A stretch of 64,000 nt of DNA, from assembly GCA_023228995.1 (NCBI GenBank), contig JALOAD010000001.1, positions 84,603-148,602 of the forward strand, in the 5' to 3' direction. The notes below the pieces were generated by a model that saw only the letters and a program-made list of their open reading frames with translations, made no database searches and was not told the origin of the DNA. Shown here one piece after another: positions 8,878 to 53,232 of this stretch. Positions within the stretch are counted from its first letter, which is position 1. Every line of letters starts with the position of its first letter. The position numbers and the translations under genes were made by a program. Source of the stretch: Candidatus Muiribacterium halophilum (GTDB lineage Bacteria; Muiribacteriota; Muiribacteriia; Muiribacteriales; Muiribacteriaceae).

Positions 8878-11439
8878 CTACTCCATTATAATACAATAAT
8901 CATTTTTTAATTCAAACATATATGTTTTAGTCTTTCTGGAATTTACAAGTGTATCCATAAATATCTTCCTAAGACTGTGTACACTTACTCTTAGAAGATT
9001 CAAGTCTGACAAATCTTCAAGTTTTCTTCCCCATACTTTTTCATAAATTTCATCTGAATTTAATTCTTTTCCTATATTAACACAAAAAAGTTTTAAAAGT
9101 TTTAATAATATGGTCTTTTTAAAAATATCATGTTTTTTTCCAAATACTAAAATTTCTTGATTAATAAAATCAATATAAATGTTATATTTCTCTTTTTTAC
9201 TGCTATATTCTTTCATTTCATAATATTCAATTTTTCTTTTAACACCGTTTACATTAATTTCAAAAAAACTACCACTTTGGTTTTTTTCAACAATAAATCT
9301 CAATCTATTTATTTCTCTAACTATAATAACAGAATTATAAAATGATAATCCTTGAATTATATTATTAATATCCTTGTTTTCTATCATATTTACTATTGAT
9401 TCAGCAAATACTTTCATATATTCCCAATCAGAAATATTTAAACTTTCTATTTCATTTTTTAAATTAATTTTATCTTTATCAATAATATATTTTAACACGA
9501 TATAATCTAAAAAAAACAAGTTATAAAATATGTAATAATTATTTTCTTTAAAAAATTTTAAGCTTTGCTCTATTTTAATATAAGCTTTGTAATAATCGTT
9601 TTTTAAAATATATATATGACCTAGTAATGCACTGTAAAAACCGTTTGTATTTTCCAATTCAAGAAATTTATCACCTGTTATTCCAAAAATTGATTTTTTT
9701 TCAAAAATTTTAATATATAAAATAACATATACAATTCTCTTATTAATAGTCTTTGCTTTATCATAATCTGCATAATATAAAAATTGTCTATAATACTCAT
9801 AAGCTTTCATTTTTGATCTTTTTGATAATTCAACAAGCGATAAATTAAAATATATATCTGATAATTTTTGTTTGTCATAATATGGATATTTTTCAATTAT
9901 ATCATTTAATACAAAATGACATTTATCATGTTCCATGAGATATAAATAACATTCACCCATTAATGCTTTTAAATTAATAAGTAATTTAAGCGAAACATTT
10001 TCACTTGATTTATCAATAAAATCTTTAAGATTTATTATACAGCTTTGAAGTAAACATAATTCTCTTTCTTTAAAAATTGTAATATATTGTATAATTATTT
10101 TTTCAGGTTTCGTTAAATTATCTGTTTTTAATTGTTCTTTAAATGAATTATTCAAATAAAAGGAATTTACTTTCAATAATAAATCTCTTTTTTTAGAATC
10201 ACATAATCTTTCTACATTTTCAATAAAAATATTTTTCTTTTCTTTTGTTAAAGCTTGTATCCACATATTATAATAATAAATTTCATCGTTAAATTCGCAA
10301 AGATATTCAATGTTTTCTTCAAGAAAAATATTCAAGTCAATATTATTTACAAAATCTATTGGAAAATTTTCAAAAGCATTTTTTATATATAAACAACATT
10401 TAAAATAATCTTCCGATGATTTAGAAAAAGTTATATATTCAAAAAAATTATCGACTGAAAATATATATTTTTCTTCGTAAAATTCAAGTATTTTTTTAGA
10501 TGTTTTTGTTATAATTTTTTTATCTGAATTATTAAGAATTGATATTTTCATCATATCTGAACATTTAATATTATTATCAATATCTTGTTCAATTACAAAA
10601 TGATTTTTTAAAAAATTTATATCATCTTCTTTAATATTAAAAAAATCAATAAAGTTTTTTTTATTTACTGCTATATTAAAAAAAGATAATAAAAACGTTA
10701 TTTCCTTCCTTTTTTGTGTAAGACCTTCATAATCAAGATAATTAATTTCTTTATTTATTGCATTAAGAAATGCATTTCCTTCAAATATATCATTTATTGA
10801 AAAATCATAACTTGTAAAAAGTGATATAAAAACTTTAATATATAAAGGAATTCCACCTGTTTTTTTATAAATTTTATTAAGCCAAAAAGAAGATATTTTT
10901 TTGTTATTTTGTCCTATAGAAATTTTTTCAACAAGTTTTACAAACTCAATATAATCAAGTTTTTTAACATTATAATGATAAATATCACTTTTTACACTTA
11001 AAGGAATTTCGATAAATTGTGAAGATAAAACAATAAGTTTTGAATTGTAAAAAATATCAAAAGCTTCTCTTATAAACTCTGAATGATCAATAAGACAAAA
11101 ATTGAAATTATCAAGTAAAATATAATTATTGTTTTTTTCTAAATATTCCAGAAATTCTCGAATATTGGCATTTTGATTGATTTTTAAATTATATTTAGTA
11201 TTTAGTAAATTGATTAATTCTTTAAAATCCATATTTCTTGTTACTTTAGCATATAATATTTTATTGTTTTTTCTATCAATATTAATATTTTCTAGAGCTT
11301 TTATAATAAAAGAAGTTTTACCAACTCCACGCATTCCATATATAAAAAAAATTGAAAAATCGTTGAATTTGTTTTTTAATCTTTCAATTTCATCTTTTCT
11401 ACCAGTAAAATTAACTAATTTTGAAAATTCTCTTTTCAT
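8878..11439 (-). CDS. STAND-type P-loop NTPase (AAA_16-like, helical/TPR-like middle) with a C-terminal OmpR/PhoB-type winged-helix DNA-binding domain
   Basis: 853 aa. FTGRKDEIERL + Walker A GMRGVGKTSF + Walker B-like YILLDNFNF in the first 120 aa. A long helical repeat region follows. The C-terminus (DIFKKTILLKLLKLF..GKELNSDEIYEKVWG....LLRVSVHSLRKIF) aligns with the Trans_reg_C motif (EF.LL.LL....G.V.sRe.L...VWG.......rtVdVHIrRLRKKL). Confidence 0.75.
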   Translation of the reverse strand: MKREFSKLVNFTGRKDEIERLKNKFNDFSIFFIYGMRGVGKTSFIIKALENINIDRKNNKILYAKVTRNMDFKELINLLNTKYNLKINQNANIREFLEYLEKNNNYILLDNFNFCLIDHSEFIREAFDIFYNSKLIVLSSQFIEIPLSVKSDIYHYNVKKLDYIEFVKLVEKISIGQNNKKISSFWLNKIYKKTGGIPLYIKVFISLFTSYDFSINDIFEGNAFLNAINKEINYLDYEGLTQKRKEITFLLSFFNIAVNKKNFIDFFNIKEDDINFLKNHFVIEQDIDNNIKCSDMMKISILNNSDKKIITKTSKKILEFYEEKYIFSVDNFFEYITFSKSSEDYFKCCLYIKNAFENFPIDFVNNIDLNIFLEENIEYLCEFNDEIYYYNMWIQALTKEKKNIFIENVERLCDSKKRDLLLKVNSFYLNNSFKEQLKTDNLTKPEKIIIQYITIFKERELCLLQSCIINLKDFIDKSSENVSLKLLINLKALMGECYLYLMEHDKCHFVLNDIIEKYPYYDKQKLSDIYFNLSLVELSKRSKMKAYEYYRQFLYYADYDKAKTINKRIVYVILYIKIFEKKSIFGITGDKFLELENTNGFYSALLGHIYILKNDYYKAYIKIEQSLKFFKENNYYIFYNLFFLDYIVLKYIIDKDKINLKNEIESLNISDWEYMKVFAESIVNMIENKDINNIIQGLSFYNSVIIVREINRLRFIVEKNQSGSFFEINVNGVKRKIEYYEMKEYSSKKEKYNIYIDFINQEILVFGKKHDIFKKTILLKLLKLFCVNIGKELNSDEIYEKVWGRKLEDLSDLNLLRVSVHSLRKIFMDTLVNSRKTKTYMFELKNDYCIIME

Positions 11440-12227
11440 TTTTTTTCCTTAAAACATTGTGATAAGATTTTAAATGCTTTACTTGGACAAGCAATAATAT
11501 CTTTTTTAAGCGGTTTTCCATTTAAAATATCATAATCAAAAAATAAATCTTCTCCATCTATATATTTCACACAAAGACCTGAAGCATAACAAATACTAAC
11601 AGCGCCTAAAATATCCCATATTTTAACTTTACCACAATGAGCAGCAAGTACACTTGATTTTGCAGCAAAAACAAGATGAAGAGCAGTCGAACCAAAAGAT
11701 CTTAATTTACCTGGAAATTTTATTGAAATATTTCTCATACTTTTGGAATCAATACATATAGAATCTGTTTTACAAAGATCTTCACGGTTAAAGACACAGG
11801 AATTAATTTCAGAATAATTAAGAAATGCACCAAAATCAGGTCCACCATAATAAAGTTCATCAAATATTGGAGAATATATAAGTCCAAAATAAGGTTTTTT
11901 ATCTTTCAGAAGTCCAATACTTATGCACCAGCCAGGAAGTTTCATTGCATAAGAATGAGTGCCATCGATTGGATCGACAGCCCATATAAATTCAGATTCT
12001 AAATTCAAATTATTATTATTACCTTCTTCACCTATAACAATTCCTTCAAATTCCTCTTCTAATTTACTTTTTATAAATATTTCAATTTCCTTATCAGCAA
12101 TTGTTACATGAGAACCATCTGGTTTTAAATCGTATCCAGTAAATGGATTTTTATAATATCTTAAAGCAATTTCACCTGCTTGTTTTATTATTTCTACAGT
12201 TTTTGTAATTAATTTTTCATTTTCCAT
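11436..12227 (-). CDS. Inositol-monophosphatase (FIG/IMPase) family phosphatase (SuhB/CysQ-like)
   Basis: Motifs IGEEG, WAVDPIDGTHSY (WxxDPxDGT) and KIWDILGAVSI (WDxxA). The ORF track begins at a TTG at 12272, but that TTGACT looks like a -35 box. The ATG at 12227 (MENEKL) has a GAGGA SD. Stop overlaps the STAND start (ATGA). Confidence 0.8.
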   Translation of the reverse strand: MENEKLITKTVEIIKQAGEIALRYYKNPFTGYDLKPDGSHVTIADKEIEIFIKSKLEEEFEGIVIGEEGNNNNLNLESEFIWAVDPIDGTHSYAMKLPGWCISIGLLKDKKPYFGLIYSPIFDELYYGGPDFGAFLNYSEINSCVFNREDLCKTDSICIDSKSMRNISIKFPGKLRSFGSTALHLVFAAKSSVLAAHCGKVKIWDILGAVSICYASGLCVKYIDGEDLFFDYDILNGKPLKKDIIACPSKAFKILSQCFKEKK

Positions 12228-15885: not shown

Positions 15886-16054
15886 AAATAGGATAATATC
15901 ATATTATTAGTAAAAAGCATAGTAAAAACAACAATTAAGTAGTATGTAAAGCGTATAAGAACAGTATGCGAGTATATGGTGCGTATAAGAGCGTGAAATA
16001 GTGAAGTGGTGAGATAGGAAAATCTTTAAATCCATTTCACTATTTCTCTATCTT

Positions 16055-19045
16055 TTAATAACTAACTCTTACAACAGTAAATTCTCCAACTCCACCTTCA
16101 TAATTCTCAGTTACAAATATTATTTTGCGATTAACTTCATCTCTTATAGTATTTGTTACAGAATCAGCCGAATTAGGATCTAAAGATTTGGAAAATTCAG
16201 TGCCGAGCTTTATTATAGGAAATCCAGCTTGATCTGGAATTAAAAACACATAGTTTTTTCCATCTGCTTGCATAATAGAATACATCTGATTATCAGTAAG
16301 ACTTGTAATATCATTTATTATATTATTTTCTAAATCAAGTAAATTAACAGAATCGCCATAATTTTCTTCGAATATTAAAAATCCATTATTGTTTTCATCT
16401 TCAAAATATTTAAGCTGATTAAACTGATTACATGTAAGATTGTTAAAACTATTTTCAATAACTTTTGAAGGTGTTTGCCATACACCATTATCAAGCTCAG
16501 AAAACCATATATGATCAAGTTCATTCTGATCTCTTGCAGAAAAATATATTTTTTCAACATTAGATAAATTTTTATAATAAAATGCAAAACCCGATTCTCT
16601 AATATCTATATCAGAAAGATTCTCAGTCGGAGTTGAATATACTTCCACTGTATCACTAAATGAATTTCCATCAAATGTATTATATATAAGCGAGTGTTTA
16701 TTACTATCCCATTCTGCTTTTACAAAAATTTGATGAAAAACACCATCTTTATAAATAGCACTTGGCACTGGAGAATAAGTATAATTAAAATCAGTATAAT
16801 TTGTAAAATTATTACTATTATAATTAAAGAATACAGTTCTATAACCCAAAGAAGGATTCGTTCCATTAGGAGATTCAAATACTAAGTAAGCTCCCAAAGA
16901 ATTATAGAAAATATCATGAAAGCAATTAATATCTTCACCAGGAGAAACTGTATAAATAATCTCAGTACCATCTGCCAAACAAGCTACAATGTCACATGAA
17001 CTATTCATATAAAATATTATAACATCTCCCGAATTATCAAGAGCAATTTTTATTTGTGAAGAAACATCAGCCAAAGTTATTTCTTCAAAAGTAATATTAT
17101 TTATATTTATTGAATAAGATTCACTAATATCATTTTCAAATCTATTATAAGCTTTAAATGAAAGATCGCATGAATAATCAAACTCTAATGGATAAACATT
17201 TCTTGTATCATAAAAATATGAATAATGACCTGGTTTAAGATTAATTAATCCTTCAGTTAACGGTGCATATTGTGCAGGTTCATAAACGCTTATATCAACT
17301 GAAACTGTATCATATAAAACATCAAAGCTAAATTGTATAATCCTAGAATCATTTAATTGAGTAAAATTCGCTATTTGTGAAGTTCTATTATCTATGCTGA
17401 AAGTTTGAGATTCAACAAATGCTAAAGGGTTTTCAGAAGGTGTAATTTTTATTTTAATTTCAGATATAGTTTCTGCTACTTCATTAAAACTTTCCCACAT
17501 TACTGTATATGTTCCAGGAGAAAGATTTGTAATATTATCAGAAGAATTCAAAGTTATAGCCTGATATTCTTGATTATTAATTTTAGCTTCTAATAAAACT
17601 GAAGTTCTTTTATATAAAACAGTAAAAGCTATAGGAATATCAAATCTATTATGATTAACATTTAATTGCGTTATAATCGGAATTATTTCTCCACCAGTGT
17701 TTACAACTACTCCAGTCAAATTTTCAAGTATTGTATAATCTGTAATATTAGGATTATTTTGAAGATCAATCCTTTTTAAATTAGGCATATCAAGCAACAC
17801 AGATAAATCTGATATATTAGTATTTGATAAAGATAAATTTTCAAGATTTGAAAGTCCTGCTAGAGATGTTATATCTGATATTCCATTTCCAGATAGATTT
17901 AGCGAATTTATAGTTGAAAGATTTGCTAAAGATGTTATATCAGATATTTTATTTCCAGACAAATTTAAAGCTTTAACTGATGTTAAAGCTGAAAGTGCTG
18001 AAATATCTGAAATATCATTATTTGAAAGATCAATGTTTTCAAGATTTTTACAAAATTCAAGCCCATTAAGACTTATTAAAGAAGTTTGGTTAGCTTTATT
18101 TGGTGCTGTTTTGGATGGACCAGGTAATGGTCCAGTTCCAGAATATGCTAGTGATATAAACTCAGCATGTGAAAGAAGTTCATCTGTAAGATAATCTTCA
18201 GATAGTACAGAAACTCCGTTAATTGTATTTAAAGTTTCTATAACTTTATTTCGTAAATTAGGATCTGTAAAATAATAAGTTTTTGTGTTGATTTCACTTA
18301 ATAAAACCCTATCATTTGTATCATTTTGATAAACATCGATTTTATAATCTTTGCCATTATCAAGATCAGTTAATACATAAATAATATTTTCAATAGTTCC
18401 GGAATAAGTAAAATTATAAGTATCAAACAAAATATTATTAACTTCAATATCATAATTGGTTGAAAATGAAGGTGATTGCCATGCAATACCAATACTATTT
18501 GAACTTTTTTCAAAAACTTCAGGAGTTTTATTTAAAGGAATTTCAATTTCCCATGAATTATATGAAATACTAACATAAGTAGTGTTATTATCGATTATTT
18601 TTATTTGTTCATTATAGTAAAATGGTATTGCATCATTTGAATTAATTGGTATAAAAAAGAAAAAATAATCTCCAGCAGCTATTTCCCCAATATTAACTCC
18701 ATTCTCATGTGGACTACCCGGTTTTACATCATATGTTTTAAAAAAAACATCATCTCTTTTACTTAAAATATCTGCAATTATAAGATTACTATGTTCTGAA
18801 GTAACTAAATCACTTACTGCATTATATACACCTAATGGAGCAAGAATAACTTCTATAGTATTAATTCCAAGATGTCTTGGTGGAGCTTTACGGTTTGTAC
18901 TATTTACAGGCCATTCAACATTAACATTAAGAGAATTTCCTGTGAATTTAGGACTTATATCAACACTGCGATTGCTACCGCATCCAGCAATAAAAAGCAT
19001 AAAAACAACCAAAATGCTTAAAGAAAAAATATATTTTTTACACAT
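16055..19045 (-). CDS. Large surface lipoprotein with leucine-rich repeats (internalin-like) and Ig/FN3-like domains
   Basis: Lipobox FIAGCGS. 22-aa LRR units (LSNNDISDISALSALTSVKALNLSGNKISDITSLANLSTINSLNLSGNGISDITSLAGLSNLENLSLSNTNISDLS). Confidence 0.8.
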   Translation of the reverse strand: MCKKYIFSLSILVVFMLFIAGCGSNRSVDISPKFTGNSLNVNVEWPVNSTNRKAPPRHLGINTIEVILAPLGVYNAVSDLVTSEHSNLIIADILSKRDDVFFKTYDVKPGSPHENGVNIGEIAAGDYFFFFIPINSNDAIPFYYNEQIKIIDNNTTYVSISYNSWEIEIPLNKTPEVFEKSSNSIGIAWQSPSFSTNYDIEVNNILFDTYNFTYSGTIENIIYVLTDLDNGKDYKIDVYQNDTNDRVLLSEINTKTYYFTDPNLRNKVIETLNTINGVSVLSEDYLTDELLSHAEFISLAYSGTGPLPGPSKTAPNKANQTSLISLNGLEFCKNLENIDLSNNDISDISALSALTSVKALNLSGNKISDITSLANLSTINSLNLSGNGISDITSLAGLSNLENLSLSNTNISDLSVLLDMPNLKRIDLQNNPNITDYTILENLTGVVVNTGGEIIPIITQLNVNHNRFDIPIAFTVLYKRTSVLLEAKINNQEYQAITLNSSDNITNLSPGTYTVMWESFNEVAETISEIKIKITPSENPLAFVESQTFSIDNRTSQIANFTQLNDSRIIQFSFDVLYDTVSVDISVYEPAQYAPLTEGLINLKPGHYSYFYDTRNVYPLEFDYSCDLSFKAYNRFENDISESYSININNITFEEITLADVSSQIKIALDNSGDVIIFYMNSSCDIVACLADGTEIIYTVSPGEDINCFHDIFYNSLGAYLVFESPNGTNPSLGYRTVFFNYNSNNFTNYTDFNYTYSPVPSAIYKDGVFHQIFVKAEWDSNKHSLIYNTFDGNSFSDTVEVYSTPTENLSDIDIRESGFAFYYKNLSNVEKIYFSARDQNELDHIWFSELDNGVWQTPSKVIENSFNNLTCNQFNQLKYFEDENNNGFLIFEENYGDSVNLLDLENNIINDITSLTDNQMYSIMQADGKNYVFLIPDQAGFPIIKLGTEFSKSLDPNSADSVTNTIRDEVNRKIIFVTENYEGGVGEFTVVRVSY

Positions 19046-19120: not shown

Positions 19121-19232
19121 TTAAGGGTTTAAGGGTTGAGGGTTGAGGGTTATGGGTTAAAAACCCGAATCCCTGTTTTTCCTCAGTTTTTACCAGGTTT
19201 TTCCCCGGTATCTCCCCGGTATCTCCCCGACG
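19121..19232. repeat. G-tract telomere-like heptamer repeats (GGTTTAAGGGTTGAGGGTTGAGGGTTATGGGTT), then a C-tract repeat (CCCCGGTATCT x2 + CCCC)
   Basis: Read directly. Five G3 tracts on the plus strand and three C4 tracts 60 bp downstream, in the promoter region of the LRR lipoprotein gene. Confidence 0.6.
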
Positions 19233-24604: not shown

Positions 24605-25495
24605 TTATTGTGATATTAGTCTTAAAACAGCTTTTTCTTTCATTTTAGCTTCAACCATAATATCGCAACAAATATTTACTGGAATATTATTAATTATATC
24701 AGTAAATTCATTAAAATCATAATCTTCAATATAATCAGTATGAGAACAACCTTTCACACCTTTTTTAGACGAAATATGAAAAATAGGAATATCACCTTTC
24801 CACGAATTAACAACTTTTTTTATATTATCAATAATATTTAAACGCCAATTATCTTTAAAATCAGCATTACATTTATGATGCAGAATATCAAAAACAACCG
24901 GAATATCTAATTTTTGAGAAATTTCAAGAACATCAACAATATTATAACTTTTATCATCATTTTCAATAATAAGTTTTTTTTGAGCCCTTTCAGATAATCT
25001 ATAAAAATTCTTACAAAATCTTTCAATTGCTGAAATTTTATCTCCGTATACTCCGCCAATATGAATAACTATTTTACCTTTATCAGGATATAAAAAATCA
25101 AGAAAATCAGAATGAAATTCAATTTCTTTCAAAGCATTAAAGACAACATTATCATTAAGAGAATTCAAAACAGTATATTGACCAGGATGCATAGAAAATC
25201 TCATATCAGAAACTTGAGCAAGTTTTCTTAAAGATTTTATCTTATCACCAAAATCAGCTTTCCAGTCAAAGTTAAAATCTCTATGAGAAGCAAGAGGAAT
25301 AATCTCAGAACCAATTCTAAAAAAGTTAATTTTATTCGCTTGATTCCATAAAATAATATCTTTCAAAGAATCAAGATTATAATTAACAATGTCAAAATAT
25401 TTATCATAATTAAGATTTTTTAACCTTAAAGTCTTGTTTGTAGTTCTACCAAGTCCTGTATTAATACAAGCATAACCTAAATATCTAATTTTCAT
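24605..25495 (-). CDS. uvsE: UV DNA damage endonuclease (UvsE/UVDE family)
   Basis: N-terminal KIRYLGYACIN and overall TIM-barrel UVDE-like conservation (~296 aa). Confidence 0.65.
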   Translation of the reverse strand: MKIRYLGYACINTGLGRTTNKTLRLKNLNYDKYFDIVNYNLDSLKDIILWNQANKINFFRIGSEIIPLASHRDFNFDWKADFGDKIKSLRKLAQVSDMRFSMHPGQYTVLNSLNDNVVFNALKEIEFHSDFLDFLYPDKGKIVIHIGGVYGDKISAIERFCKNFYRLSERAQKKLIIENDDKSYNIVDVLEISQKLDIPVVFDILHHKCNADFKDNWRLNIIDNIKKVVNSWKGDIPIFHISSKKGVKGCSHTDYIEDYDFNEFTDIINNIPVNICCDIMVEAKMKEKAVLRLISQ

Positions 25496-25787
25496 TTGTT
25501 AACCTCTTGGGGTCGGTCCACTATTTGTTTACAACCAAAATAATTATAAGTATATATAAATTTGCAATTTTGACTTTTTTTAGTAAAAAAACATGTTTAT
25601 AACGATTTAACCAAACAAAAATTTATAAGAATTAAAAAAAATTAATAATAATTTTTAATAAATTTTTGATTTTTGCAATTATTAAATAGTATATAACAAT
25701 TTTTATCTTAAAATTTCTTAATCCCTTGCAAAATCTATAAAAAACAATATTTTTTTATATTTTGTCAAGAATTAAGGTCCGACACCA

Positions 25788-28538: not shown

Positions 28539-28725
28539 TATTTTCCGCCTTAAATATTTTGTTTTTTAAAAGATTTTTAATAAAATTACTAAAATATAAT
28601 AACCAGATAATTGTTTTTTTTCAACACAACTGATTTATAGATAACAGGGTTTTATATATCTCCTATAAAGCTTTATTACAAATCCCAGCCCAGAACTTAA
28701 TCGGAATGAAAAACCTTAAATCTGC

Positions 28726-28773
28726 GAAATAGCCAAATAGCGAGATTGCGAAGTAGATTTAAAGCTTTTTAAT
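28726..28773. repeat. Conserved intergenic element, family B copy 1 (AAATCTGCGAAATAGCCAAATAGCGAGATTGCGAAGTAGATTTAAAGC)
   Basis: Shares AAATCTGCGAA(A)TAGC and GAGATTGCGAARTAGATTTAAA with 52752-52821. Both lie ~180-190 bp upstream of a minus-strand start and next to short tandem repeats. Confidence 0.75.
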
Positions 28774-28877
28774 TCTTTTATAATTTAACATTCCAAATTA
28801 AACATTGCTTTTGTACTGCTTCTATACGCTTCACATACCGCTTCTATACGCTCTTATACTCTTCTTATACTTCTTCT

Positions 28878-31153: not shown

Positions 31154-31266
31154 TAATTAGATGCAAATCATCGCTAATTAGCAATTTATTGCGTTAATTG
31201 CTTTCAATCTTCAACTCTTTAACCCATTAACCCTTTAACCATCTCACTATCTCACTATCTCACTTT

Positions 31267-36562: not shown

Positions 36563-36664
36563 AAAACCCTCTTTATGTGTTTTAAAGTTTCTATACCGAT
36601 TTTATACGTTTTTATACGCTTCACATAATGCTTCTTAAATTATTATAACATAAATTGTTTTACT

Positions 36665-39600
36665 TCAAAACAATTGTTGATTTTCTAATTTTTCTGTTCT
36701 AAATATTGATTTTTCAAGATTTTCATCCAAAGATATATTTTCAGAGTTTTTTATTTGTCTATCAATTTTCAAATATTCATCTTTTTCAAAAGTGCTTTTT
36801 TTAATTTTAAGCATATAAATTAGATTAAAACAGTTAAATATTGAATTTTGTTTAAGATCAGATAAACATATAAGCTGAGTATTAAATTTTTTGGCAATTT
36901 CAAATAAAGGAATAAGAAGATGTTGACTTGATATTGGACCGAATGGATTGTCCATTATAAGTATTCTTGAATCTTTTCCTGCTAAATTCTCAGAATTATT
37001 TATCATAGTATTATTTCTTATATATGCCATTAAAGCTGATATAACTGCAAAAAATACTACAAATTTTTCACCACCAGAATTTTCACTTATTGCACTTTCC
37101 CATTTTTTCCAACGATTATTTGCTGTATTAAGATCAATTTTATAAACACTTACTGGAATTGAATTTCTTCCTGAATACTGATTTATCAATTCTCTTGTAG
37201 ACATTAATCTAAAAATACTTTTATTTATTTTTTCGTTTTCATAATTTTGTCTTTTTTCTTCTCTAATATTTTGTATACAAGAATCAATATATTTTTCTAT
37301 TCTTTTTTTAGCATTTTCTTCATTATCAATATCTGTGTTTATCTTTATCATCTGAATTGGTCTGATTTTTTCTGATAATTTCACAGAAGATGATAATGCT
37401 ATTTTACCAAGTTCTTCAAATACTCTTTGAGCATGCACAAAACATTGAAATACAACATCATTTCTATTTTTTTCAACATTTTCAAGTCTTATTCTATTTA
37501 TTTCTATTAATTCACTTATTTTTATTATATAATCTTTTAATCTTTCAAAAAGATAATAATATTCATTGTATTTTTTATTTTTCCTTTCAATCATACTATC
37601 AATTGAAGTAAAAAGATTATCTATATTTTGATTTTTATGTTTAAATTCAGATCTTAATAATGAATAATTACCAATAAGCTGTTTTTCTTCATTATCCATT
37701 TGTTCTTTAAACAATTTATAATTACTTTCAAGATTTTTATAAATTATTTCAATGTTATCTTTTATATCAAATTCAATTATAGAGCTTGAAGGTAAATTTA
37801 AAATATCAATTCTTTGTTTAATTTTTTTAAATTCAGCAATTTCTTTTCTTAACTTTTTTTCAAGTAATATGTAATCTTTGCGATTTGAATTAATTGTATT
37901 TTTTCTTGCAATAAAATCTTGTTTGATATTTTCTCTTGGACAAGCTTTATCATAATCTAATCTTTCAATTTCCTTAAAAGCTTGTTCTTTCCCTCTATTT
38001 TCAGAACTTATATCTTTATCAACTATATTATAATCAGATATAATAGAATTTAGTTTATTATTTTGTAAATAGATATCAATTTCTGTTTTTTCTTCAATTT
38101 CTATGTTATATTCAATGTTATTCACTTCTTCTTCGTTAAATTTAAATCTTGAAAGTTCTTTTGTAAATTCTGATATTTCATTAATTGATTTTTCTTTTAA
38201 GATTATTAATGCTGAAAAATCTTTTGAATATTCTTTTTTCAAATTCTCATATATACTTAAAAGTTCTTCAATATTTTCTTTGAGTATTTCAGATTTTTCT
38301 TGAGCATTTGAGAATTTTAATTTATATTTTTCACATTCTGTTAATTTATTTTTTATAATTTCAATATTTTTATTTAATCCTGAAATTTCATTATTTATTT
38401 TTATAATTTCATTTTCATTTAATAAAATATCTTTATTGAGTTTTTCTATTGTTTTTTGAAGATTTTTTCTTTTTTCTAATATTCTGACATATTCTGAATC
38501 TTTCACTATAAATTCATTGAAATCATGTAATTTGACATTTAATAAATTGAGTTTATTTTGTTTTTCATTTAATTTATTTATATTATTCCTGATATTTATT
38601 TCTGCATTTTTATTTTCATTATTTAAAATTTCAATTTTTTTTTCTATTTCATTAGTTTTTTGTAATAAATCTCTTTCATTTTTTTCAGCTTGATATAAAA
38701 AATCCTCTTTATAATCAAATTCTTGAAGAATTCTAAAATCATTTGATGCAATATTATAAGAATTAGCAATATCCTTATATATATTTTCAAGAGATTTTTT
38801 TTCATTTTCTTTTTCATTAAGAAATTTTTCAGTTTTATCAATTTCAAATATTCGTTTTTCAACATTAACAATAAAATTCAAATCTTCATTGATTTTAATA
38901 AATACATTATTGTTTTCAAAATCAACATTTGTATTTTCATAAAAAAATAAAGGAATTGAACTTTTAATAAATTTATCTTTAAATACATCTTTAACTTTAT
39001 TAATTTGATCTTTTTTTAATATAATTGAATAAGCAAGAAGAGGATTTTTTTCAAGTAAAGAATTTCTATTATCTTTTTTTTGATTTTTAATAAAATTCTC
39101 ACCAGTTTCAAATTCAATATTATTATTAATCAAAATATCAATTATATTTTGATCTATATGAAGAGAATTTTGTTTAATTCCTTTAATAATATTTTCAATT
39201 AATTTTATATCAGAAGAAAGTTCTTTTTTTCTATTATCATAATCAATAAGAATATTTTTAAATTCAAATTCAATATGTTTTTTATCAAAAATTCTTTGTT
39301 TTTTTAATTCATATTTTTTTAATATTTCATAAGATTTATCTCTTTTATCTGTGAATAATGCAATTTCATCTATTTTTTTTTGATAAAGTAAAATATTATC
39401 TCTAACTTTATTAGAAAAGTCTTTGATTAAATCAGAATTATTTTGCAATTTATTTTCTAATTTTAAATTTTGCTCATTTATTTGTAAAATCTCATTATTA
39501 TGATTTGCAATTTTATTTTCAATTTCACTTATAAATAAATTAAACTCATCTATATCAATCTGCCCAAGAATATTTCTTAATATTTTAACATTATTATTTT

Positions 39601-41074
39601 TTTCAAAATCCAATTGATATTTTTCAAATATAATAGCTTTTTCATTTACAGAACCAAGACTAATATTAGAAGAATTAATTGTTTTTTTAAATTCTTTTTG
39701 TTTAATTAAAATTTCTTCAAGATTTTGCTTTGAAATTTGTTTATTATTTTCAATATTTTTATATTGATTTTGTAAATTTACAATTCTTTCATCAAACTTT
39801 ATTTTTAGAGAATATTCAATATGAGATAATCTTTCTTGTATATTGGAATTTTTTTCAAGACTTAAAATTTTTTCATTATAACCTTTTAAATCATTTTCAC
39901 AATTGATTTTTTTATCATAAATCTTTTTAAATCGAAGTTTTTCAAGAAATATATTAAGTTTTTTTATATTATCTTTTAAAATATTAATCTTTTCTAATAA
40001 TGTGATTTTTCTTTTTTCCAAAATTTCAAGCTTATCAACAGAATTATAATAATCAAGACTTCTTTCTTCATAATCAATATTTTTAAGAGAATATTCAGCT
40101 TGAATTAAAAATTTAGAAATATCATTTTCCTCTTTTTCAAGTTGTTCTATTTTATCACTTAAAATATTTTCAATATATTTAATTTTCTTTTCAGTATTTT
40201 CTTTATTTTCAATAATTGCAGTAAAAATCTCAATATCTTTTGAAAAATCCTCAAGTTTTTCTGAAAAATTCTGCAAAAGCTCTTTTTCAATAAGAAATTC
40301 CTCATTTCTAATTATTTCATCAACAAGATTAGACATCATTTGTCCAAGATGCCCAGCTTGATTTTTATCTTTATAGAAAACCTTTAATATTGTTTTATTT
40401 AAAAACCATTCATTAATCAATTGATCTGAATTTTTACATTTTTGAAAAATCTCATCAAGACCACCTTCACTATCATTTATACCAATGATTATATTTTTCC
40501 ATTCATCCTGAGAAATTCCATATTCAGATAAATGCTCTCTATATTCTTCCATATTTTCCTGAGAAAATATCCTAAAATCCATTGAAGATTTTTTAGCTCT
40601 TTCATCAGCAAATTCTCTAGCTTTTTTATAATTCATAACATTAATAACATTTCCTTTCCTAGCAGAAAAACCAATATTACTAATATCATAAGAATTTGAC
40701 TGTGAATATTTTGATGTAAACATAAAAAATCTAAGCCTTGAGTTTTTTTCTCCATCCATTCCATGAAACTCATGATTTTCACAAACAATACCTGTTAAAA
40801 GATAATCAGAAGAATAATCAAGTTTCCATTCTATCATTATAAAACAAGGTAATTTAGAAGTTTTAAAAAAATCAGCAAATTTTCTACCTTGAATCTTTGC
40901 CCCAGGTACAATTGGTTGAAGCATAACTTGAACAAGAACACTCTTTCCTCCACCATTTGCAAGACTTAAAAGAGCATTTTCACCTTTATAAAAATCAAAC
41001 ATTTCATCAGTAATATGTCTTGTAAAATTATTATATGAAAAATTAAGAACTCTTATTCGATTGATTTTAGGCAT
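36665..41074 (-). CDS. jetC: Wadjet JetC / MksB-like SMC-family ABC ATPase (1469 aa)
   Basis: N-terminal Walker A LANGGGKSVLVQV. Very long coiled-coil middle. C-terminal signature NSGGEKF and Walker B ILIMDNPFG. Last gene of the jetDABC operon. Confidence 0.75.
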   Translation of the reverse strand: MPKINRIRVLNFSYNNFTRHITDEMFDFYKGENALLSLANGGGKSVLVQVMLQPIVPGAKIQGRKFADFFKTSKLPCFIMIEWKLDYSSDYLLTGIVCENHEFHGMDGEKNSRLRFFMFTSKYSQSNSYDISNIGFSARKGNVINVMNYKKAREFADERAKKSSMDFRIFSQENMEEYREHLSEYGISQDEWKNIIIGINDSEGGLDEIFQKCKNSDQLINEWFLNKTILKVFYKDKNQAGHLGQMMSNLVDEIIRNEEFLIEKELLQNFSEKLEDFSKDIEIFTAIIENKENTEKKIKYIENILSDKIEQLEKEENDISKFLIQAEYSLKNIDYEERSLDYYNSVDKLEILEKRKITLLEKINILKDNIKKLNIFLEKLRFKKIYDKKINCENDLKGYNEKILSLEKNSNIQERLSHIEYSLKIKFDERIVNLQNQYKNIENNKQISKQNLEEILIKQKEFKKTINSSNISLGSVNEKAIIFEKYQLDFEKNNNVKILRNILGQIDIDEFNLFISEIENKIANHNNEILQINEQNLKLENKLQNNSDLIKDFSNKVRDNILLYQKKIDEIALFTDKRDKSYEILKKYELKKQRIFDKKHIEFEFKNILIDYDNRKKELSSDIKLIENIIKGIKQNSLHIDQNIIDILINNNIEFETGENFIKNQKKDNRNSLLEKNPLLAYSIILKKDQINKVKDVFKDKFIKSSIPLFFYENTNVDFENNNVFIKINEDLNFIVNVEKRIFEIDKTEKFLNEKENEKKSLENIYKDIANSYNIASNDFRILQEFDYKEDFLYQAEKNERDLLQKTNEIEKKIEILNNENKNAEINIRNNINKLNEKQNKLNLLNVKLHDFNEFIVKDSEYVRILEKRKNLQKTIEKLNKDILLNENEIIKINNEISGLNKNIEIIKNKLTECEKYKLKFSNAQEKSEILKENIEELLSIYENLKKEYSKDFSALIILKEKSINEISEFTKELSRFKFNEEEVNNIEYNIEIEEKTEIDIYLQNNKLNSIISDYNIVDKDISSENRGKEQAFKEIERLDYDKACPRENIKQDFIARKNTINSNRKDYILLEKKLRKEIAEFKKIKQRIDILNLPSSSIIEFDIKDNIEIIYKNLESNYKLFKEQMDNEEKQLIGNYSLLRSEFKHKNQNIDNLFTSIDSMIERKNKKYNEYYYLFERLKDYIIKISELIEINRIRLENVEKNRNDVVFQCFVHAQRVFEELGKIALSSSVKLSEKIRPIQMIKINTDIDNEENAKKRIEKYIDSCIQNIREEKRQNYENEKINKSIFRLMSTRELINQYSGRNSIPVSVYKIDLNTANNRWKKWESAISENSGGEKFVVFFAVISALMAYIRNNTMINNSENLAGKDSRILIMDNPFGPISSQHLLIPLFEIAKKFNTQLICLSDLKQNSIFNCFNLIYMLKIKKSTFEKDEYLKIDRQIKNSENISLDENLEKSIFRTEKLENQQLF

Positions 41075-41766
41075 TATATTGCATCCTCAAATATTTCTCT
41101 AATATCTTTAACTCTATCCTGATCAAGATAATAATTTATCATTATATCATCAAGCTTAGATGTAGATCTAATTTCTCTATTATCATCAAGTATAATAATA
41201 AGATCTTCTTTTTGCATAAATCTTGCAGCTTTAATAACAGTATAAGTTTTAGTTTTTCTTGAATTTTCATCATATCCTTGTTTTGAATCCCATTCTTGAG
41301 CTATTTTTATAAAATTAATACTATATTTTTCTTCCATTTTTTCATAATCTTCCGAATTTGAAAGAATACGAATAAATCTTTCATCAAGTTTTTCAACAAT
41401 TTCATGAATTCTAATAAAATCTCTTTGTTTTGGATTACGATTTTTACCACCATAAAAAATATGAAGAATAAACATAGATATATACGAATTAAGAAATACA
41501 TCAACAAGTCTTGCATCACTTCCTAACCATTCTCTCATATTTTTAGAAGTCCATCCCAAAAGATCATTTGAAGAATTCGGGATAATATAAGCTATATGAG
41601 AAAGTTCAACAATATCAAATTCAAAAACTTCTTCAAAATCATATAGAATAGTTCTAATATCAGGATTTTTAAATTCAATAAATAATTCAAGATCATTATC
41701 CTTAGATAATTCACCTTTTTTTAGAAGTATTCTAAATATATTAAGAGCTGTTTTTAATTCACTCAT
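41074..41766 (-). CDS. jetB: Wadjet JetB / MksE-like (DUF4194-type) subunit
   Basis: 230-aa acidic helical protein between the kleisin-like and SMC-like genes. 1-nt and 4-nt start/stop overlaps. Confidence 0.55.
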   Translation of the reverse strand: MSELKTALNIFRILLKKGELSKDNDLELFIEFKNPDIRTILYDFEEVFEFDIVELSHIAYIIPNSSNDLLGWTSKNMREWLGSDARLVDVFLNSYISMFILHIFYGGKNRNPKQRDFIRIHEIVEKLDERFIRILSNSEDYEKMEEKYSINFIKIAQEWDSKQGYDENSRKTKTYTVIKAARFMQKEDLIIILDDNREIRSTSKLDDIMINYYLDQDRVKDIREIFEDAI

Positions 41767-43376
41767 ATTTGAACCTCAATAAGAAAATCAGACAATATTA
41801 TTTTTTTATTAATATTTAAATTATTTTCAGATATTGTATATTCACATTCAAAATTCACATTGTCATCCTTTGATATTTTAATACTAATAACATTATAAAT
41901 ATCAGGATTTTCATCCTCAATAGCATATAAACAAACATTAGCATCAAACTCGCCAGATATATCAGCAATAATATTTTCTCTTTCTTTCTTCCAAGCTATA
42001 ATATCAAGCAATCCAATATCATAAAGCTTTAACATTGTTCTAAATATTCTTTCTTCACTTGTAAAAACATCAATATTTTCATATTTTTCATTAAGAAAAC
42101 TAAAAAAATCAGAAAATCTAAATTTATTAAACTCTTTTCCATAAATCATAATATTTTTCACAATATCAATATAAGCATTTGTTCTTTCTTTTTCAAGAAA
42201 AATAATACTTTCATCATTTTCAGTTAAATTTTCCACAATATCAGAAAAATTAGCAAATTCTTTTTCCCTAAGCTTGTATTGTCTTTCATATAATTTAATT
42301 AAATTAAGTATATTTTTAATATCTGGTTTAAAAATTGGATTAAAAAGTTTCCATAAACAACAATATTTATCCTCAGATAATTTTTCCATAACACAAAGAA
42401 TTTCATCTTCAATATCAAATCTTCTATTAATTGTTTTTGAAAAAGAATCTCCAATTGTGTCAATATATATTTTAGATAAATTATGCCTATTTATAATCAA
42501 TTCTCTCTGTTCAGAAACAGTTCTATCAATGTTTTTTAGAATTTCAGCAATATCATTTTTAGCTTTTCTAATTTCCACATTATCACTATCAGAATTTTCA
42601 TCTTTAAACAAATTAAATTCAGATAATTTCACAGTTTTATGAATATCATCCATAACTTTATACTCATCTTCAAGAAGAGCATAAGTACCCTTGATAATAA
42701 TTTCATACTCAGCAACATCAACTGAATAAATATTTTCACGAAGTTTTTCAAGAAATCTTAAAATCTCTGATTTTTTTTGCCTAACCATTTGAACAAGACT
42801 TCTGCTTTGCAATACAGCTTTTTTGTAATTTTTACGCTTAATAAGTTCTTTAAGTTTTAATTCTTCAATAGTAAAACTAATTTCATCATCAACTTCCTTT
42901 GTCCTAAAAAGAAAATCATAACCTTGATCAGTAAGTCTATAAATAACTTTATAACTTTTTTCAGTATAAATAACTTTATCATCAATAAGTTTAACCCTAT
43001 ATTTAATTTTTCCAGCAGAATAATCCATAATATCAAAAAATCTTGGTTTACCACCATTTTGAAGAATATCCTTAACAAGATATTCAGCCAAAATTAAATT
43101 ATCAATATCAATTTCACCATAAAAAGGAAGAATTAAACCAAGAAAATCCGCAATATTATTAATACTACATTCATTATCTTCTGAAAGAGTTTTTTCCATT
43201 ATAAAAACAAGAAGAGAAAAAAGAATATTTTCCAAATCACCTGAATTAAAACGATTTTCAATATCCATTTTACGCTCTCTGCGATTAACAATAGAATCAA
43301 CAGCCCCAGAAACCTGCATTCTTTTATAAAAACCCTCAAGATATTCAGGATATTTAGCAATCACAATTTTCTCCAA
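41763..43376 (-). CDS. jetA: Wadjet JetA / MksF-like kleisin-type subunit (DUF3375-type)
   Basis: 537 aa. Position and size fit jetA. Helical with winged-helix-like segments. Confidence 0.55.
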   Translation of the reverse strand: MEKIVIAKYPEYLEGFYKRMQVSGAVDSIVNRRERKMDIENRFNSGDLENILFSLLVFIMEKTLSEDNECSINNIADFLGLILPFYGEIDIDNLILAEYLVKDILQNGGKPRFFDIMDYSAGKIKYRVKLIDDKVIYTEKSYKVIYRLTDQGYDFLFRTKEVDDEISFTIEELKLKELIKRKNYKKAVLQSRSLVQMVRQKKSEILRFLEKLRENIYSVDVAEYEIIIKGTYALLEDEYKVMDDIHKTVKLSEFNLFKDENSDSDNVEIRKAKNDIAEILKNIDRTVSEQRELIINRHNLSKIYIDTIGDSFSKTINRRFDIEDEILCVMEKLSEDKYCCLWKLFNPIFKPDIKNILNLIKLYERQYKLREKEFANFSDIVENLTENDESIIFLEKERTNAYIDIVKNIMIYGKEFNKFRFSDFFSFLNEKYENIDVFTSEERIFRTMLKLYDIGLLDIIAWKKERENIIADISGEFDANVCLYAIEDENPDIYNVISIKISKDDNVNFECEYTISENNLNINKKIILSDFLIEVQI

Positions 43377-44418
43377 GAAATTTCATAAAAACCTCATAAT
43401 TAACAATTTCTTGCGGAATATACAACTTAGAATTAAGAATAAATTTAATATTATTTTGAATTTCAAAGTTAAAATAATCTAAAAAAACATCAATATCAAT
43501 ATTTTTCTTCCTTAAAGAAAAACATTTAGGCAAATTAATATTATAAGATAATTTTATCATTAATTCGTATAATCGCATAAACGGATATACCAAACATTCA
43601 GAATTATTACTCAAAATCCTCATAAAAATATCAACACCCTCAAAATCCAAATCACCAAAATATAAAAAATCAACTTTATCAGCAATATTATTTTCTAAAA
43701 TATACAATCTATAATAATCAAGAGCATTTTTTCTTGTAATTTTATTACCCTCACCGTAAATCAAAACATCAATATAAAGACCAAAAATCAAATTCTCACC
43801 TTTATTTTGAATAGCTTTTTTCAAAGAAAACCAAGTATCTTTATTTTCAATAACAAGAATTTTCATATCTTTATTTTTCCCACAAACATATTCAAAAAAC
43901 GGTTCATAAGTATCAAAAAAATTAAGAAAATTCAATTCAAGCTTATTAAATTTAAAAACCTGTTCTAAAAGAGATAAATTTTTTTCAATAAATTTTTCAT
44001 AAAGAAATATTTCAAAAGATCTTTCATTTCTTGAAATCTTCAATTTAGGAATACAATTATTTTGCCATAAATAATCAGAAATAGGTTCTAAAACACATTT
44101 ATGAATATTATATTTTTGAGGATATTTAAGATATTTTTCAATACAAAAAACAGGATTCAACCTTCTAATTTCTTCAAAAACAACATTATTATAAGGTTTA
44201 TCAGCAACAATTCTATATCTATTAAATAAAGGAAATTTAATATTACCATCAGTATTAGAAGCTTTTATCCTACAAATAATATTTTCATTTTCAAGAATTG
44301 AAATTTTTTGAAAAAGTTCACAATTCTGTTTTTCGTCAATAATAACAGCAATTTCTTTAAGAGTAATTGTCTTTTTTTTATATTTTTGTAATTTTTTCCT
44401 AATCAAATTTATATTCAA
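43354..44418 (-). CDS. jetD: Wadjet JetD / MksG-like nuclease subunit (C-terminal Toprim, DUF2220-type)
   Basis: Toprim acidic motifs ILVIENKDTW (Glu) and LYFGDLDFEGVDIF (DxD) about 54 aa apart in the C-terminal half. First gene of the operon, as in mksGFEB. Confidence 0.65.
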   Translation of the reverse strand: MNINLIRKKLQKYKKKTITLKEIAVIIDEKQNCELFQKISILENENIICRIKASNTDGNIKFPLFNRYRIVADKPYNNVVFEEIRRLNPVFCIEKYLKYPQKYNIHKCVLEPISDYLWQNNCIPKLKISRNERSFEIFLYEKFIEKNLSLLEQVFKFNKLELNFLNFFDTYEPFFEYVCGKNKDMKILVIENKDTWFSLKKAIQNKGENLIFGLYIDVLIYGEGNKITRKNALDYYRLYILENNIADKVDFLYFGDLDFEGVDIFMRILSNNSECLVYPFMRLYELMIKLSYNINLPKCFSLRKKNIDIDVFLDYFNFEIQNNIKFILNSKLYIPQEIVNYEVFMKFLGENCDC

Positions 44419-46223: not shown

Positions 46224-46277
46224 CTTTAATTTTTCATTATTAATTTTTAATTATTCATTATCAGACTTTAGTCTGAT

Positions 46278-52573: not shown

Positions 52574-52660
52574 TTATTGTTTAAACCTCTAATTAAAAAT
52601 GTAGTTGTACAGAAAATATCTATTAACGACTGCAAAAACATTATAAATAATACTTAGTAT

Positions 52661-52691
<31 letters not shown>

Positions 52692-52751
52692 CAGTATGAT
52701 TAAGTTAAAACAAAATCAAATCCTGGCTCAAAATCATACCGGGATGACACT

Positions 52752-52821
52752 AAAATCTGCGAATAGCAAATTAAAATGTTCAGTGAACATTTTTGTGTGA
52801 GATTGCGAAATAGATTTAAAA
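52752..52821. repeat. Conserved intergenic element, family B copy 2, with a 27-bp insertion carrying the palindrome ATGTTCA-g-TGAACAT
   Basis: Read directly and compared with 28726-28773. Confidence 0.75.
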
Positions 52822-52837
52822 TTTTTCCTACTTCGCC

Positions 52838-53232
52838 ATTTCACTCTTTCACTCTTTCACTCTTTCACCATTTCGCCATTTCACTCTTTCACTCTTTCAC
52901 TCTTTCACTCTTTCACCATTTCGCCATTTCACTCTTTCACCATTTCACTCTTTCACCATTTCACTCTTTCACCATTTCACTCTTTCACCATTTCACTCTT
53001 TCACTCTTTCACCATTTCACTCTTTCACCATTTCACTCTTTCACCATTTCGCCATTTCACTCTTTCACCATTTCACTCTTTCACCATTTCGCCATTTCAC
53101 TCTTTCACCATTTCACTCTTTCACCATTTCGCCATTTCACTCTTTCATCATTTCACTCTTTCACCATTTCACTCTTTCACCATTTCACTCTTTCACCATT
53201 TCACTCTTTCACCATTTCACTCTTTCACCCAT
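52838..53232. repeat. About 50 tandem copies of a degenerate octamer (TCACTCTT / TCACCATT / TCGCCATT)
   Basis: Read directly. Units of 8 bp with three variants. No stop codons in any frame, which explains the artefactual 160-aa ORF 52776-53258. Confidence 0.9.

Follow-up and report, generated by a model that had tools for sequence, protein, structure and literature searches.

A REP/BIME/BOX-like intergenic repeat with putative RNA hairpins in the Candidatus Muirbacterium halophilum clade

A 64,000-nucleotide stretch of Candidatus Muiribacterium halophilum DNA (contig JALOAD010000001.1, positions 84,603 to 148,602; hereafter the window) carries two copies of a short intergenic element, one upstream of an FAD-dependent oxidoreductase gene and one upstream of a GH3 hexosaminidase gene. 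Very probably, the element is a dispersed composite repeat of the REP/BIME/BOX-like kind. The reading that we prefer, with a probability of roughly 0.45, is that it is a module of a lineage-specific composite intergenic repeat of this kind with a role as an RNA hairpin. The RNA-hairpin mode of action, taken by itself, is put forward tentatively, as slightly more doubtful than the combined reading. Six full and at least three partial copies were found in about 110 kb of clade sequence, and all of them are intergenic, while intergenic DNA makes up only 8.9% of the window.

Results

Two copies and their modules

The two look-alike elements reported by the first-pass annotation of the window are both present, and their similarity is far above chance. 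The 19-mer ATTGCGAARTAGATTTAAA occurs exactly twice in the 64-kb window. In dinucleotide shuffles, the mean was 0.38 matches with three mismatches permitted, and the observed count was reached in 0 of 100 shuffles. The two copies are as follows.

28708..28775, minus strand (the gene-sense strand, which folds better): copy 1, hairpin-less form, nhmmer E=1e-10
52746..52836, minus strand: copy 2, full form, nhmmer E=5e-26

Copy 1 had been assigned to the correct locus, but its left coordinate of 28726 falls about 8 bp inside the element; the match begins at 28718 (AAATCTGCGAAATAGC). Its right arm, ATTGCGAAGTAGATTTAAA, spans 28745-28763. As matched to copy 1, the left arm of copy 2 runs from 52753 and the right arm covers 52802-52820. 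The inverted ends described earlier are confirmed (TTAAATCT/AGATTTAA), and in copy 1 they lengthen to a 15-bp imperfect inverted repeat (28708-28723 versus 28755-28770). On the plus strand, copy 1 starts with TTAAATCT and reads GAAAAACCTTAAATCT / GCGAAATAG CCAAATAG CGAGATT GCGAAGTAG / ATTTAAAGCTTTTT.

Copy 2 reads CTAAAATCT-GCGAATAG-CAAATT-AAAATGTTCAGTGAACATTTT-TGTGTGAGATT-GCGAAATAG-ATTTAAAATTTTTCC on the plus strand between 52746 and 52828. It consists of a left arm (CTAAAATCTGCGAATAGC, 52750-52767), a palindrome named H (AAAATGTTCAGTGAACATTTT, 52773-52793) and a right arm (GAGATTGCGAAATAGATTTAAAATTTTTCC, 52799-52828). The first inverted unit of an octamer array, TACTTCGC, follows at 52829-52836 and pairs with GCGAAATAG. 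The palindrome within the insert of copy 2 was correctly recognized, but its stem is 9 bp long (AAAATGTTC-AGT-GAACATTTT) and not 7 bp. The 27-bp insert is not peculiar to copy 2; it is a conserved optional module that occupies the same place in three other full copies. Copy 1 is therefore the hairpin-less form, because H recurs at this place in other full copies.

An identical spacer is found in a contig of JGI 3300015214, and the copy 1 and copy 2 halves are found in Logan SRR8449813 and SRR6484323 and in ENA ERZ27247346. Since the same intergenic sequence appears in independent assemblies, an assembly artefact is excluded. In two samples, the Logan contigs that flank copy 1 (L001/L002 and L087/L088) stop at 28749 and 28777 and have in common a 29-mer, which is the right arm plus its AT-rich flank. 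Contigs of a de Bruijn graph break in this way when a k-1-mer has more than one context. The contig ends thus give indirect evidence, from which we infer at least one further near-identical right arm in those two samples.

The modules are described here on the strand on which the first-pass annotation wrote the element (the written strand), which is antisense to the flanking genes. In the aligned copies, the order is a TTTAAATCT cap, one to four GNGAAATAG units, the optional palindrome, AGATTTAAAnnTTTTCC and a (YAYTTCAC)n array. The left cap has the consensus TTTAAA(A)TCT, and the right part has the consensus AGATTTAAA-nn-TTTTCC. H is AAAATGTTCAnTGAACATTTT, 21 nt in length; it is present in four of the six full copies and missing from two. 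The array has between 0 and about 49 (YAYTTCAC)n units. Reverse-complementing its unit CTATTTCGC gives GCGAAATAG. Forward and array units are thus reverse complements of each other, which makes the element the turn-around point of a head-to-head octamer array. The head-to-head GNGAAATAG and CTATTTCNC units flank a conserved AT-rich center and give stems of 9-15 bp. The sequence of H, AAAATGTTCAnTGAACATTTT, is identical at four loci, and an isolated H at position 22740 of a related contig (L093) retains its stem by a double change, from C-G to T-A.

Copies in related sequences

The first-pass annotation had proposed looking for further copies, and copies beyond the pair were found in the related contigs that were fetched. 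Fuzzy patterns and an nhmmer profile built from six copies were applied to contigs around the window proteins and their homologues. The E-values of the full copies span 1e-10 to 1e-27. The copies, with their nhmmer E-values, are listed below.

Window 28714-28769: copy 1, between trehalose-6-phosphate synthase and FAD-oxidoreductase, 1e-10
Window 52748-52844: copy 2, between the NamZ-like gene and GH3, 5e-26
L097 14240-14328: same genome, about 6.3 kb to the left of the window, between two flagellar genes, 2e-23
L043 2263-2352 (copy L043a; equal to L098 921-1010): between fliR and flhB, 3e-22
L043 4304-4400 (copy L043b): upstream of fliP, 2e-27
L093 1864-1940 (copy L093a): related contig of 30% G+C, 5e-13
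Window 15991..16056, plus strand (the better-folding strand): partial relative, nhmmer match 16001-16048, E=5e-8
L093 4829-4854: left arm alone
L093 4640, 22635 and 22740: palindrome H alone

L043 is a contig labelled Ca. M. halophilum (GCA_023230945.1). The partial relative reads GAAATAG TGAAATGG ATTTAAAGATTTTCC TATCTCAC CACTTCAC TATTTCAC on the minus strand. It is a palindrome with a 15-bp stem, lies 5 nt past a stop codon, and has folding z-scores of -4.4 and -5.6.

The exact right-arm pattern was scanned in 185,579 species genomes, and all 14 matches were chance matches in unrelated coding DNA. In JGI metagenomes, 67 of the 68 matches were likewise chance matches in unrelated coding DNA, and one was genuine (L043). 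Absence from this metagenome scan says little about copy number, because the JGI contig of the window itself was also missed. H and a second repeat, the TGTCAT module described below, were seen at none of about 80 unrelated loci that served as incidental controls, and the right arm and H had no match in viral contigs. A search of Rfam, also proposed earlier, gave no family match to the element: nothing reached the gathering score across the whole window, and the best sub-threshold hits (E=0.74 and E=5.7) were far under it. The element family is confined to the Ca. Muirbacterium halophilum-like clade and is strictly intergenic. The earlier suggestion of a small mobile repeat is upheld to this extent only, as a dispersed, lineage-specific intergenic repeat family with six full copies at unrelated loci.

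Genomic context

The window has about 26% G+C and a negative GC skew, and 39 of its 47 open reading frames (ORFs) lie on the minus strand. The genes on either side of both window copies are co-directional, on the minus strand: a GT20 trehalose-6-phosphate synthase and the FAD-dependent oxidoreductase for copy 1, a NamZ-like exo-muramidase and the GH3 hexosaminidase for copy 2. At all loci, the stop codon of the upstream gene precedes the element, and the promoter or ribosome-binding site of the next gene comes after it. In L043a and L097, the left arm abuts the ribosome-binding site. A consensus scan found no canonical terminator in the two element-bearing spacers of the window.

The first-pass annotation saw a regulatory module shared by two genes, at a fixed distance from each. 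The distances of 188 and 179 bp to the two starts are correct, but the spacing is not fixed: in other copies, the next start is 17-95 bp away, so that the range over the copies is 17-190 bp. The similar spacing at the two window loci is coincidental. Beyond the element and the TGTCAT module, the two loci continue with about 140 bp of unrelated promoter sequence. The idea of a shared regulatory module does not hold on other grounds as well. Three copies are inside flagellar operons, directly before a ribosome-binding site. A sigma-70-like promoter sits between copy 1 and its gene, as follows.

28596..28624, minus strand: sigma-70-like promoter match of the FAD-oxidoreductase gene, TTGAAA-17-TATTAT, 10/12, a consensus match only

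The region of this match has no more such matches than its shuffles. Moreover, the GH3 orthologues, with 89% and 74% protein identity, have no upstream copy. The orthologue spacers (contigs L089 and L090) contain other arrays, with AACCCTAC, CTAACC/GGTTAG and GTAC/TATAC units, and neither has the junction element; a conserved operator for GH3 is thereby ruled out.

A promoter within the element was also considered and rejected. The candidates match poorly (TTGCGA-17-TCCTAT/TTAATT on the written strand, TTGAAC on the gene strand), and the sites from the scan are all outside the element. A sigma-54 site within it was set aside by eye, as its spacing misfits.

In a more distant Muiribacteriota contig, fliR overlaps flhB; in the M. 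halophilum-like contig, a 174-bp spacer between these genes is filled by the element. Because the distant relative packs the same genes without spacers, the elements are lineage-specific additions and are necessarily tolerated in operons.

Orientation and folding

As written, all six full copies run antisense to the gene on either side (two-sided p=0.03). When the isolated left arm (L093 4829-4854) and the partial relative (15991-16056) are added, seven of eight members are antisense.

Both strands fold better than their shuffles, as is expected of any DNA palindrome. The gene-sense strand has the lower minimum free energy in 7/7 copies and the better z-score in 6/7; for the partial relative, the better-folding strand was used as "gene-sense" in this comparison. 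For copy 1, the values are -14.7 kcal/mol (z -2.9) on the minus strand and -10.5 kcal/mol (z -1.1) on the plus strand. The predicted helices contain 28 G·U pairs on the gene-sense strand versus 7 on the other strand. For the gene-sense strand, RNAalifold predicts a 10-bp consensus stem in which the forward units are paired with the last units of the array around a loop of 14-16 nt (GGAAAAGCUUUAAAUC). Over the five copies having array units, this stem contains G·U in 9 cells and A·C in none. The junction hairpin has a predicted energy of -9 to -15 kcal/mol. H was measured in four copies: three of them have -5 to -6.6 kcal/mol, and L097, where the flanking bases pair too, has -9.6 kcal/mol. The strand asymmetry of these predictions favors a putative RNA transcribed from the gene strand.

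Flanking arrays and the TGTCAT module

The tandem repeats noted beside both copies are borne out by Tandem Repeats Finder, which delimits the CTTATAC-type units at 28818-28870 and the octamer array, with 390 bp, at 52839-53229. The arrays and the module beside the two copies are the following.

52829..53229, minus strand: octamer array, period 8/16, about 49 units
28806..28870, no strand assigned: CTTATAC-type units, period about 10-11 nt, between copy 1 and the stop codon of trehalose-6-phosphate synthase
52656..52691, no strand assigned: (AGTATAA)5 heptamer array, between copy 2 and the GH3 start
52717..52749, minus strand: TGTCAT hairpin module, TGTCATCCCGG-N12-CCAGGAT on the gene-sense strand, adjoining copy 2

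The octamer units are CTTTCACT, CATTTCAC and CATTTCGC on the plus strand, or GTGAAAGA, GTGAAATG and GCGAAATG in the gene sense, and are reverse complements of the GNGAAATAG units within the element. The assembled length of this array may be inexact, because contigs of other assemblies (L085, L094) start or stop inside it. The repeats fragment short-read assemblies: contigs of several assemblies break within the octamer array or at copy 1. CTTATAC-type units recur at 2290-2374, 15924-15990 and 36590-36640.

The heptamer array (TTTATAC on the gene strand) has five units in the window versus four in L085 (ENA ERZ27247346). On the gene strand, its units give sigma-70-like TTTATA-17-TATACT matches, for which four or more units suffice. 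The number of heptamer units could thus make or abolish promoter-like sites upstream of GH3.

The TGTCAT hairpin has the consensus TGTCATCCYGG-N12-CCRGGAT with a constant TGTC 5' overhang, and is REP-like in size and shape. A degenerate, weak version adjoins copy 1 at 28680-28712. Because the module adjoins both copies, the similarity of copies 1 and 2 extends about 40 bp geneward beyond the element. A conserved RNA structure in these 40 bp was considered and rejected; the region is a separate TGTCAT repeat. More modules are found in the window at 8026-8116, in L043 at 893-943 (two modules, equal to L098 2330-2380), in L097 at 11513-11548, and in L089 about 45 nt upstream of the start of the GH3 orthologue. 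The module was seen only at Muirbacterium-like loci. The single mismatch of its stem is G·U-compatible on the gene-sense strand at L089 and on the opposite strand at the window locus.

Two ORFs that touch the element were rejected. A 160-aa ORF (52776-53258, plus strand) begins at an ATG in H, reads through the array of 8-nt period and would encode a (HFTLSPFHSFT)n-like product; it is treated as spurious because any slippage of the array would shift the frame. A mini-ORF from the ATG in H has 9-18 codons and no Shine-Dalgarno sequence, its frame is not kept in copy 2, and it is absent from the hairpin-less copies.

Arrays without the junction element exist in L090 and in L099. The latter (JGI 3300014197; its FlhB is 81% identical to that of L043) represents a sister genome, in which the arrays are even denser (415-979 and 5852-6153) and include 12-mers, (GGGATGAAACCG)n, as well as (GGGTTGA)n and a run of about 25 ACTYCACT-type octamers. 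In L100, a Muiribacteriota contig that is more distant, arrays are absent throughout 21 kb.

Discussion

In the reading that we prefer, the element would be co-transcribed with the upstream gene, and one or two hairpins would form in the 3' untranslated region or between cistrons. Locally, and depending on context, these hairpins would slow read-through and 3'-to-5' mRNA decay, with at most the strength of a weak attenuator; the element would be no operator of the downstream genes. By analogy, such co-transcribed hairpins would fit the reports on BIMEs, REP325 and BOX, as far as the excerpts of these sources go (PMC3049150; bioRxiv 10.64898/2026.03.23.713779; PMC3733652). Excerpts of PMC3049150 describe BIMEs that act as attenuators, and part of bioRxiv 10.64898/2026.03.23.713779 presents REP325 as a partial terminator and mRNA stabilizer.

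The terminator that the first-pass annotation had suggested is only weakly sustained. The position is where a terminator is expected and the spacers are without a canonical one, but the conserved hairpin H is weak.

Several points weigh against an RNA-hairpin role. Both the co-transcription and the effect on expression are deduced from sequence. The H hairpin is predicted to be weak compared with the four clear terminators in the window, for which -13 to -18.5 kcal/mol was calculated. Three copies are inside flagellar operons, where strong termination would be harmful. The main stem shows no doubly compensatory change across the five copies with array units, and the sole such change was seen in the isolated H (L093 22740). 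The partial relative at 15991-16056 is the only member oriented oppositely to the genes that flank it. With 128 G versus 84 C over the copies, the gene-sense strand is rich in G, which follows the GC skew of the window, and the G·U asymmetry could partly be a matter of base composition. The orientation bias could stem from replication, because the directions of genes and replication are collinear at all loci. Finally, the sign tests overstate independence, because the copies are related by descent.

The strongest rival holds that the element is functionless or parasitic DNA, a by-product of slippage, template switching, gene conversion or an unidentified transposase that is tolerated in the spacers. 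This is unlikely when taken alone, but it is nearly as likely as the co-transcribed hairpins, and the two are not mutually exclusive. The spacers turn over fast, as the GH3 orthologues (89% and 74%) have wholly different arrays and no element. The count of heptamer units differs between samples, the arrays of L090 and L099 exist without the junction, and the more distant relative manages with compact spacers. Croucher et al. judged BOX, RUP and SPRITE to be likewise functionless or parasitic, according to excerpts of PMC3049150. However, the arms and the sequence of H are kept between loci and between related genomes, and the constant orientation in six full copies together with the strand-specific G·U bias is unexpected from pure slippage. 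Strand-specific transposition could also yield the orientation bias. The fast spacer turnover and the one-unit heptamer difference between samples fit both views, and functionless DNA would still leave room for side-effects on expression.

A DNA-level role is improbable. Here, the palindromes and phased units of the element would be a site for a nucleoid-associated protein (IHF/HU-like, as in BIME subclasses), gyrase or a regulator, and would organize DNA without acting as RNA. The conservation of H in sequence, beyond structure (AAAATGTTCAnTGAACATTTT, identical at four loci), speaks for it. AATCAAAATGTTC, found just before or within H in three copies, agrees at 12 of 13 positions with what we take to be the IHF consensus (WATCAANNNNTTR); this agreement is a lead only and not a test. 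H as a LexA or Cheo box was set aside, since the half-sites, as we presume them to be, are in the wrong order (GTTC..GAAC and not GAAC..GTTC). Several proteins are reported to bind BIMEs or REPs in excerpts of PMC2817692. In contrast, a DNA-binding site would be expected to carry mismatches of both polarities, and here G·U is found on one strand only. H is also missing from two full copies, and the isolated H keeps its stem through a double change.

An extended reading would make the whole mosaic a lineage-specific device of post-transcriptional control, beyond selfish DNA. It is given little weight. The purine-rich sense arrays of 7-8 nt, as (GUGAAAGA)n RNA, would offer multivalent pads for proteins of the S1/CSP/CsrA/Hfq kind, the junction hairpin would fix the 3' boundary, and slippage in unit number would tune or phase-vary the neighbors, including genes of the flagellar operons.

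That the FAD-oxidoreductase and GH3 genes share a cis-regulatory operator or leader is close to refuted. The similar start distances (188 and 179 bp) and the similarity that continues about 40 bp further geneward had suggested it. However, the extra similarity is the dispersed TGTCAT hairpin, present at unrelated loci, and the distance of other copies to unrelated genes, among them fliP, flhB and another flagellar gene, is 17-95 bp. The GH3 orthologues (L089 and L090) are without the element, and the predicted promoter is downstream of it. An independent small or antisense RNA on the written strand, with H and its T-run (TTTTT to TTTTTTT) as terminator, is equally improbable: the 5-7 T after H are a better tract than that of the gene strand, but no convincing promoter lies upstream on this strand, which folds worse in 7/7 copies, two copies are without H, and there is no Rfam match.

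Comparison with known repeat systems

The element is a new family of a known kind, the small composite interspersed repeats, and belongs to none of REP, BIME or BOX. The likeness to REP/BIME of Enterobacteria and Pseudomonads, as these are portrayed in excerpts of PMC3733652 and PMC2817692, lies in short, strictly intergenic, dispersed and clade-specific repeats. Their palindromic units alternate in orientation around conserved linker motifs. They stand mostly downstream of ORFs and between co-directional genes, operon interiors included, and are plausibly transcribed and act as RNA hairpins. All copies described here are extragenic and between co-directional genes. The differences are in the building blocks, which here are 8-9 nt units in long tandem arrays and not a palindrome of 20-40 bp, and in the tag. 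REP palindromes bear an unpaired GTAG or CGTC tag at one end, according to part of PMC3733652; here, the tag position has ATAG or ATGG in five of six full copies, and GTAG only in copy 1 (GCGAAGTAG). REP/BIME number more than 100 copies per genome; the count here, of six full and at least three partial copies, covers about 110 kb of clade sequence. A cognate RAYT gene, an IS200/IS605-like Y1 transposase gene flanked by the repeats, accompanies REP/BIME in excerpts of PMC2817692. No Y1 transposase or RAYT was found in a Pfam scan of 28 window ORFs, nor in the Pfam records of other window genes in the fetched contigs.

BOX of Streptococcus pneumoniae, boxA - boxB(n) - boxC, resembles the element in having fixed ends plus an internal module and a variable tandem number, as set out in part of PMC3049150. 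The design here is left arm, optional H, right arm and (octamer)n, with n from 0 to about 49, and the likeness is one of design. In the same excerpts, BOX is AT-rich, strongly self-pairing, intergenic, co-transcribed and limited to one species group, as is the element, for which co-transcription is presumed. Large BOX copies create spurious ORFs, which parallels the 160-aa ORF at 52776-53258. The element differs in belonging to another phylum, in its tandem unit of 8 nt versus about 45 nt for boxB, and in an array that lies outside the inverted ends and not between them; no partner insertion sequence with similar ends was identified.

The flanking arrays, and only these, resemble the TAACTGA heptamer arrays of Beggiatoaceae, Cyanobacteria and Bacteroidetes. 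These arrays too have intergenic tandem units of 7-8 nt, often just upstream of start codons, with a sporadic phylogeny and variable length, and a post-transcriptional role has been suggested for them (PMC4679880). Here, the units are instead CTTTCACT, CATTTCAC, CTTATAC, TTTATAC, GGGTTAG and others, many types in one genome, and TAACTGA repeats are absent. The element also differs from simple-sequence repeats, as it is a non-tandem junction with unique conserved arms, unlike head-to-tail units of 5-11 nt, and such a junction does not figure in the reports on these arrays.

Like a Rho-independent terminator, the element follows a stop codon, has a hairpin and then a U-rich tract, and occupies a spacer without another terminator. 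Its stems are AU-rich and weak, however, and H has only two G-C pairs. The main hairpin has a loop of 14-16 nt and no U-tract. The sequence of the element is conserved between loci, unlike that of independent terminators.

The terminal inverted repeats TTAAATCT / AGATTTAA recall MITEs (miniature transposable elements with inverted repeats) such as Correia, RUP and Nezha, and their length, 15 bp in copy 1 and about 10 bp (one mismatch) in L043a, is small by MITE standards. Target-site duplication, a trait of MITEs, was not found at the borders of copy 1, where the flanks are inverted and not direct. The right border of the other copies merges into the array. In an empty-site comparison, the GH3 orthologue spacers are without the element and are rearranged throughout. 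No insertion sequence was seen.

Small interspersed repeats are known chiefly from cultured Proteobacteria, Firmicutes, Neisseria and Cyanobacteria. The family described here would be the first described for Muiribacteriota, a phylum without an isolate and with almost no literature. In practice, such repeats break short-read assemblies at reproducible points, generate spurious ORFs and could be strain markers. A clade with spacers filled by arrays and hairpins, even in flagellar operons, is a natural system in which to ask whether repeats tune operons, with the sister lineage with compact spacers as comparison. The element does not overturn the current understanding. Somewhat more interesting than the element alone is the wider pattern, in which the spacers of the Muirbacterium clade are crowded with octamer and heptamer arrays, conserved palindromes and variable-stem hairpin arrays.

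Other features of the window and its relatives

Runs of hairpins with conserved flanks and differing self-complementary stems are found in the window (46181-46251 and 58406-58476), in L093 (4448-4905 and 1735-1850) and in L098 (2163-2602). For example, GCTAATTAG-GTGC-AAA-GCAC-CGCTAAT in one copy corresponds to GCTAATTAG-CTACT-GTA-AGTAG-CGCTAAT in another. The stems co-vary between copies. The runs include four consecutive ATTG-stem-loop-stem-CAAG units. Other short tandem units occupy spacers at 19121-19160, 19202-19229 and 31215-31266 of the window. The spacer units include TCCCCGGTATC x3, TTAACCC units and ATCTCACT x3. TTAAGGG/TTGAGGG, repeated five times, gives five G3 runs and forms a G-quadruplex-type motif on the strand opposite the genes.

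A 77-nt stretch, TGGGGTCGGTCCACT...TTATAAGTATA, is shared with 73% identity between 25478-25554 and 49050-49126 (also around 49470-49490). It is directly upstream of a UvdE-like gene and of a xanthine-dehydrogenase-like operon, and a related GCACCGACCCCAAG precedes the divergent gene at 49505. The stretch, for which Rfam gave nothing at the gathering score, may be a shared leader or operator.

Two gene groups on the minus strand were also seen. A Wadjet-like cluster (36665-44418) includes an ORF with a JetD C-terminal domain, an unassigned 537-aa ORF, a DUF6063 protein and a 1469-aa ORF, which has no Pfam hit and is located where the GC content of the window reaches its minimum (16.7% at 38-40 kb). 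At 7048-11439, a STAND NTPase (NB-ARC/nSTAND6, 853 aa), an SH3-domain protein and a SIR2_2 protein adjoin one another; this group may be a defense island. A gene for a surface protein with DUF285/Listeria-Bacteroides repeats (2447-5536, minus strand) contains internal tandem repeats of 75, 162 and 387 nt. In another sample, the orthologue of this protein (88% identity) has 950 versus 1029 aa, a difference of 79 residues, which fits a variation in repeat number.

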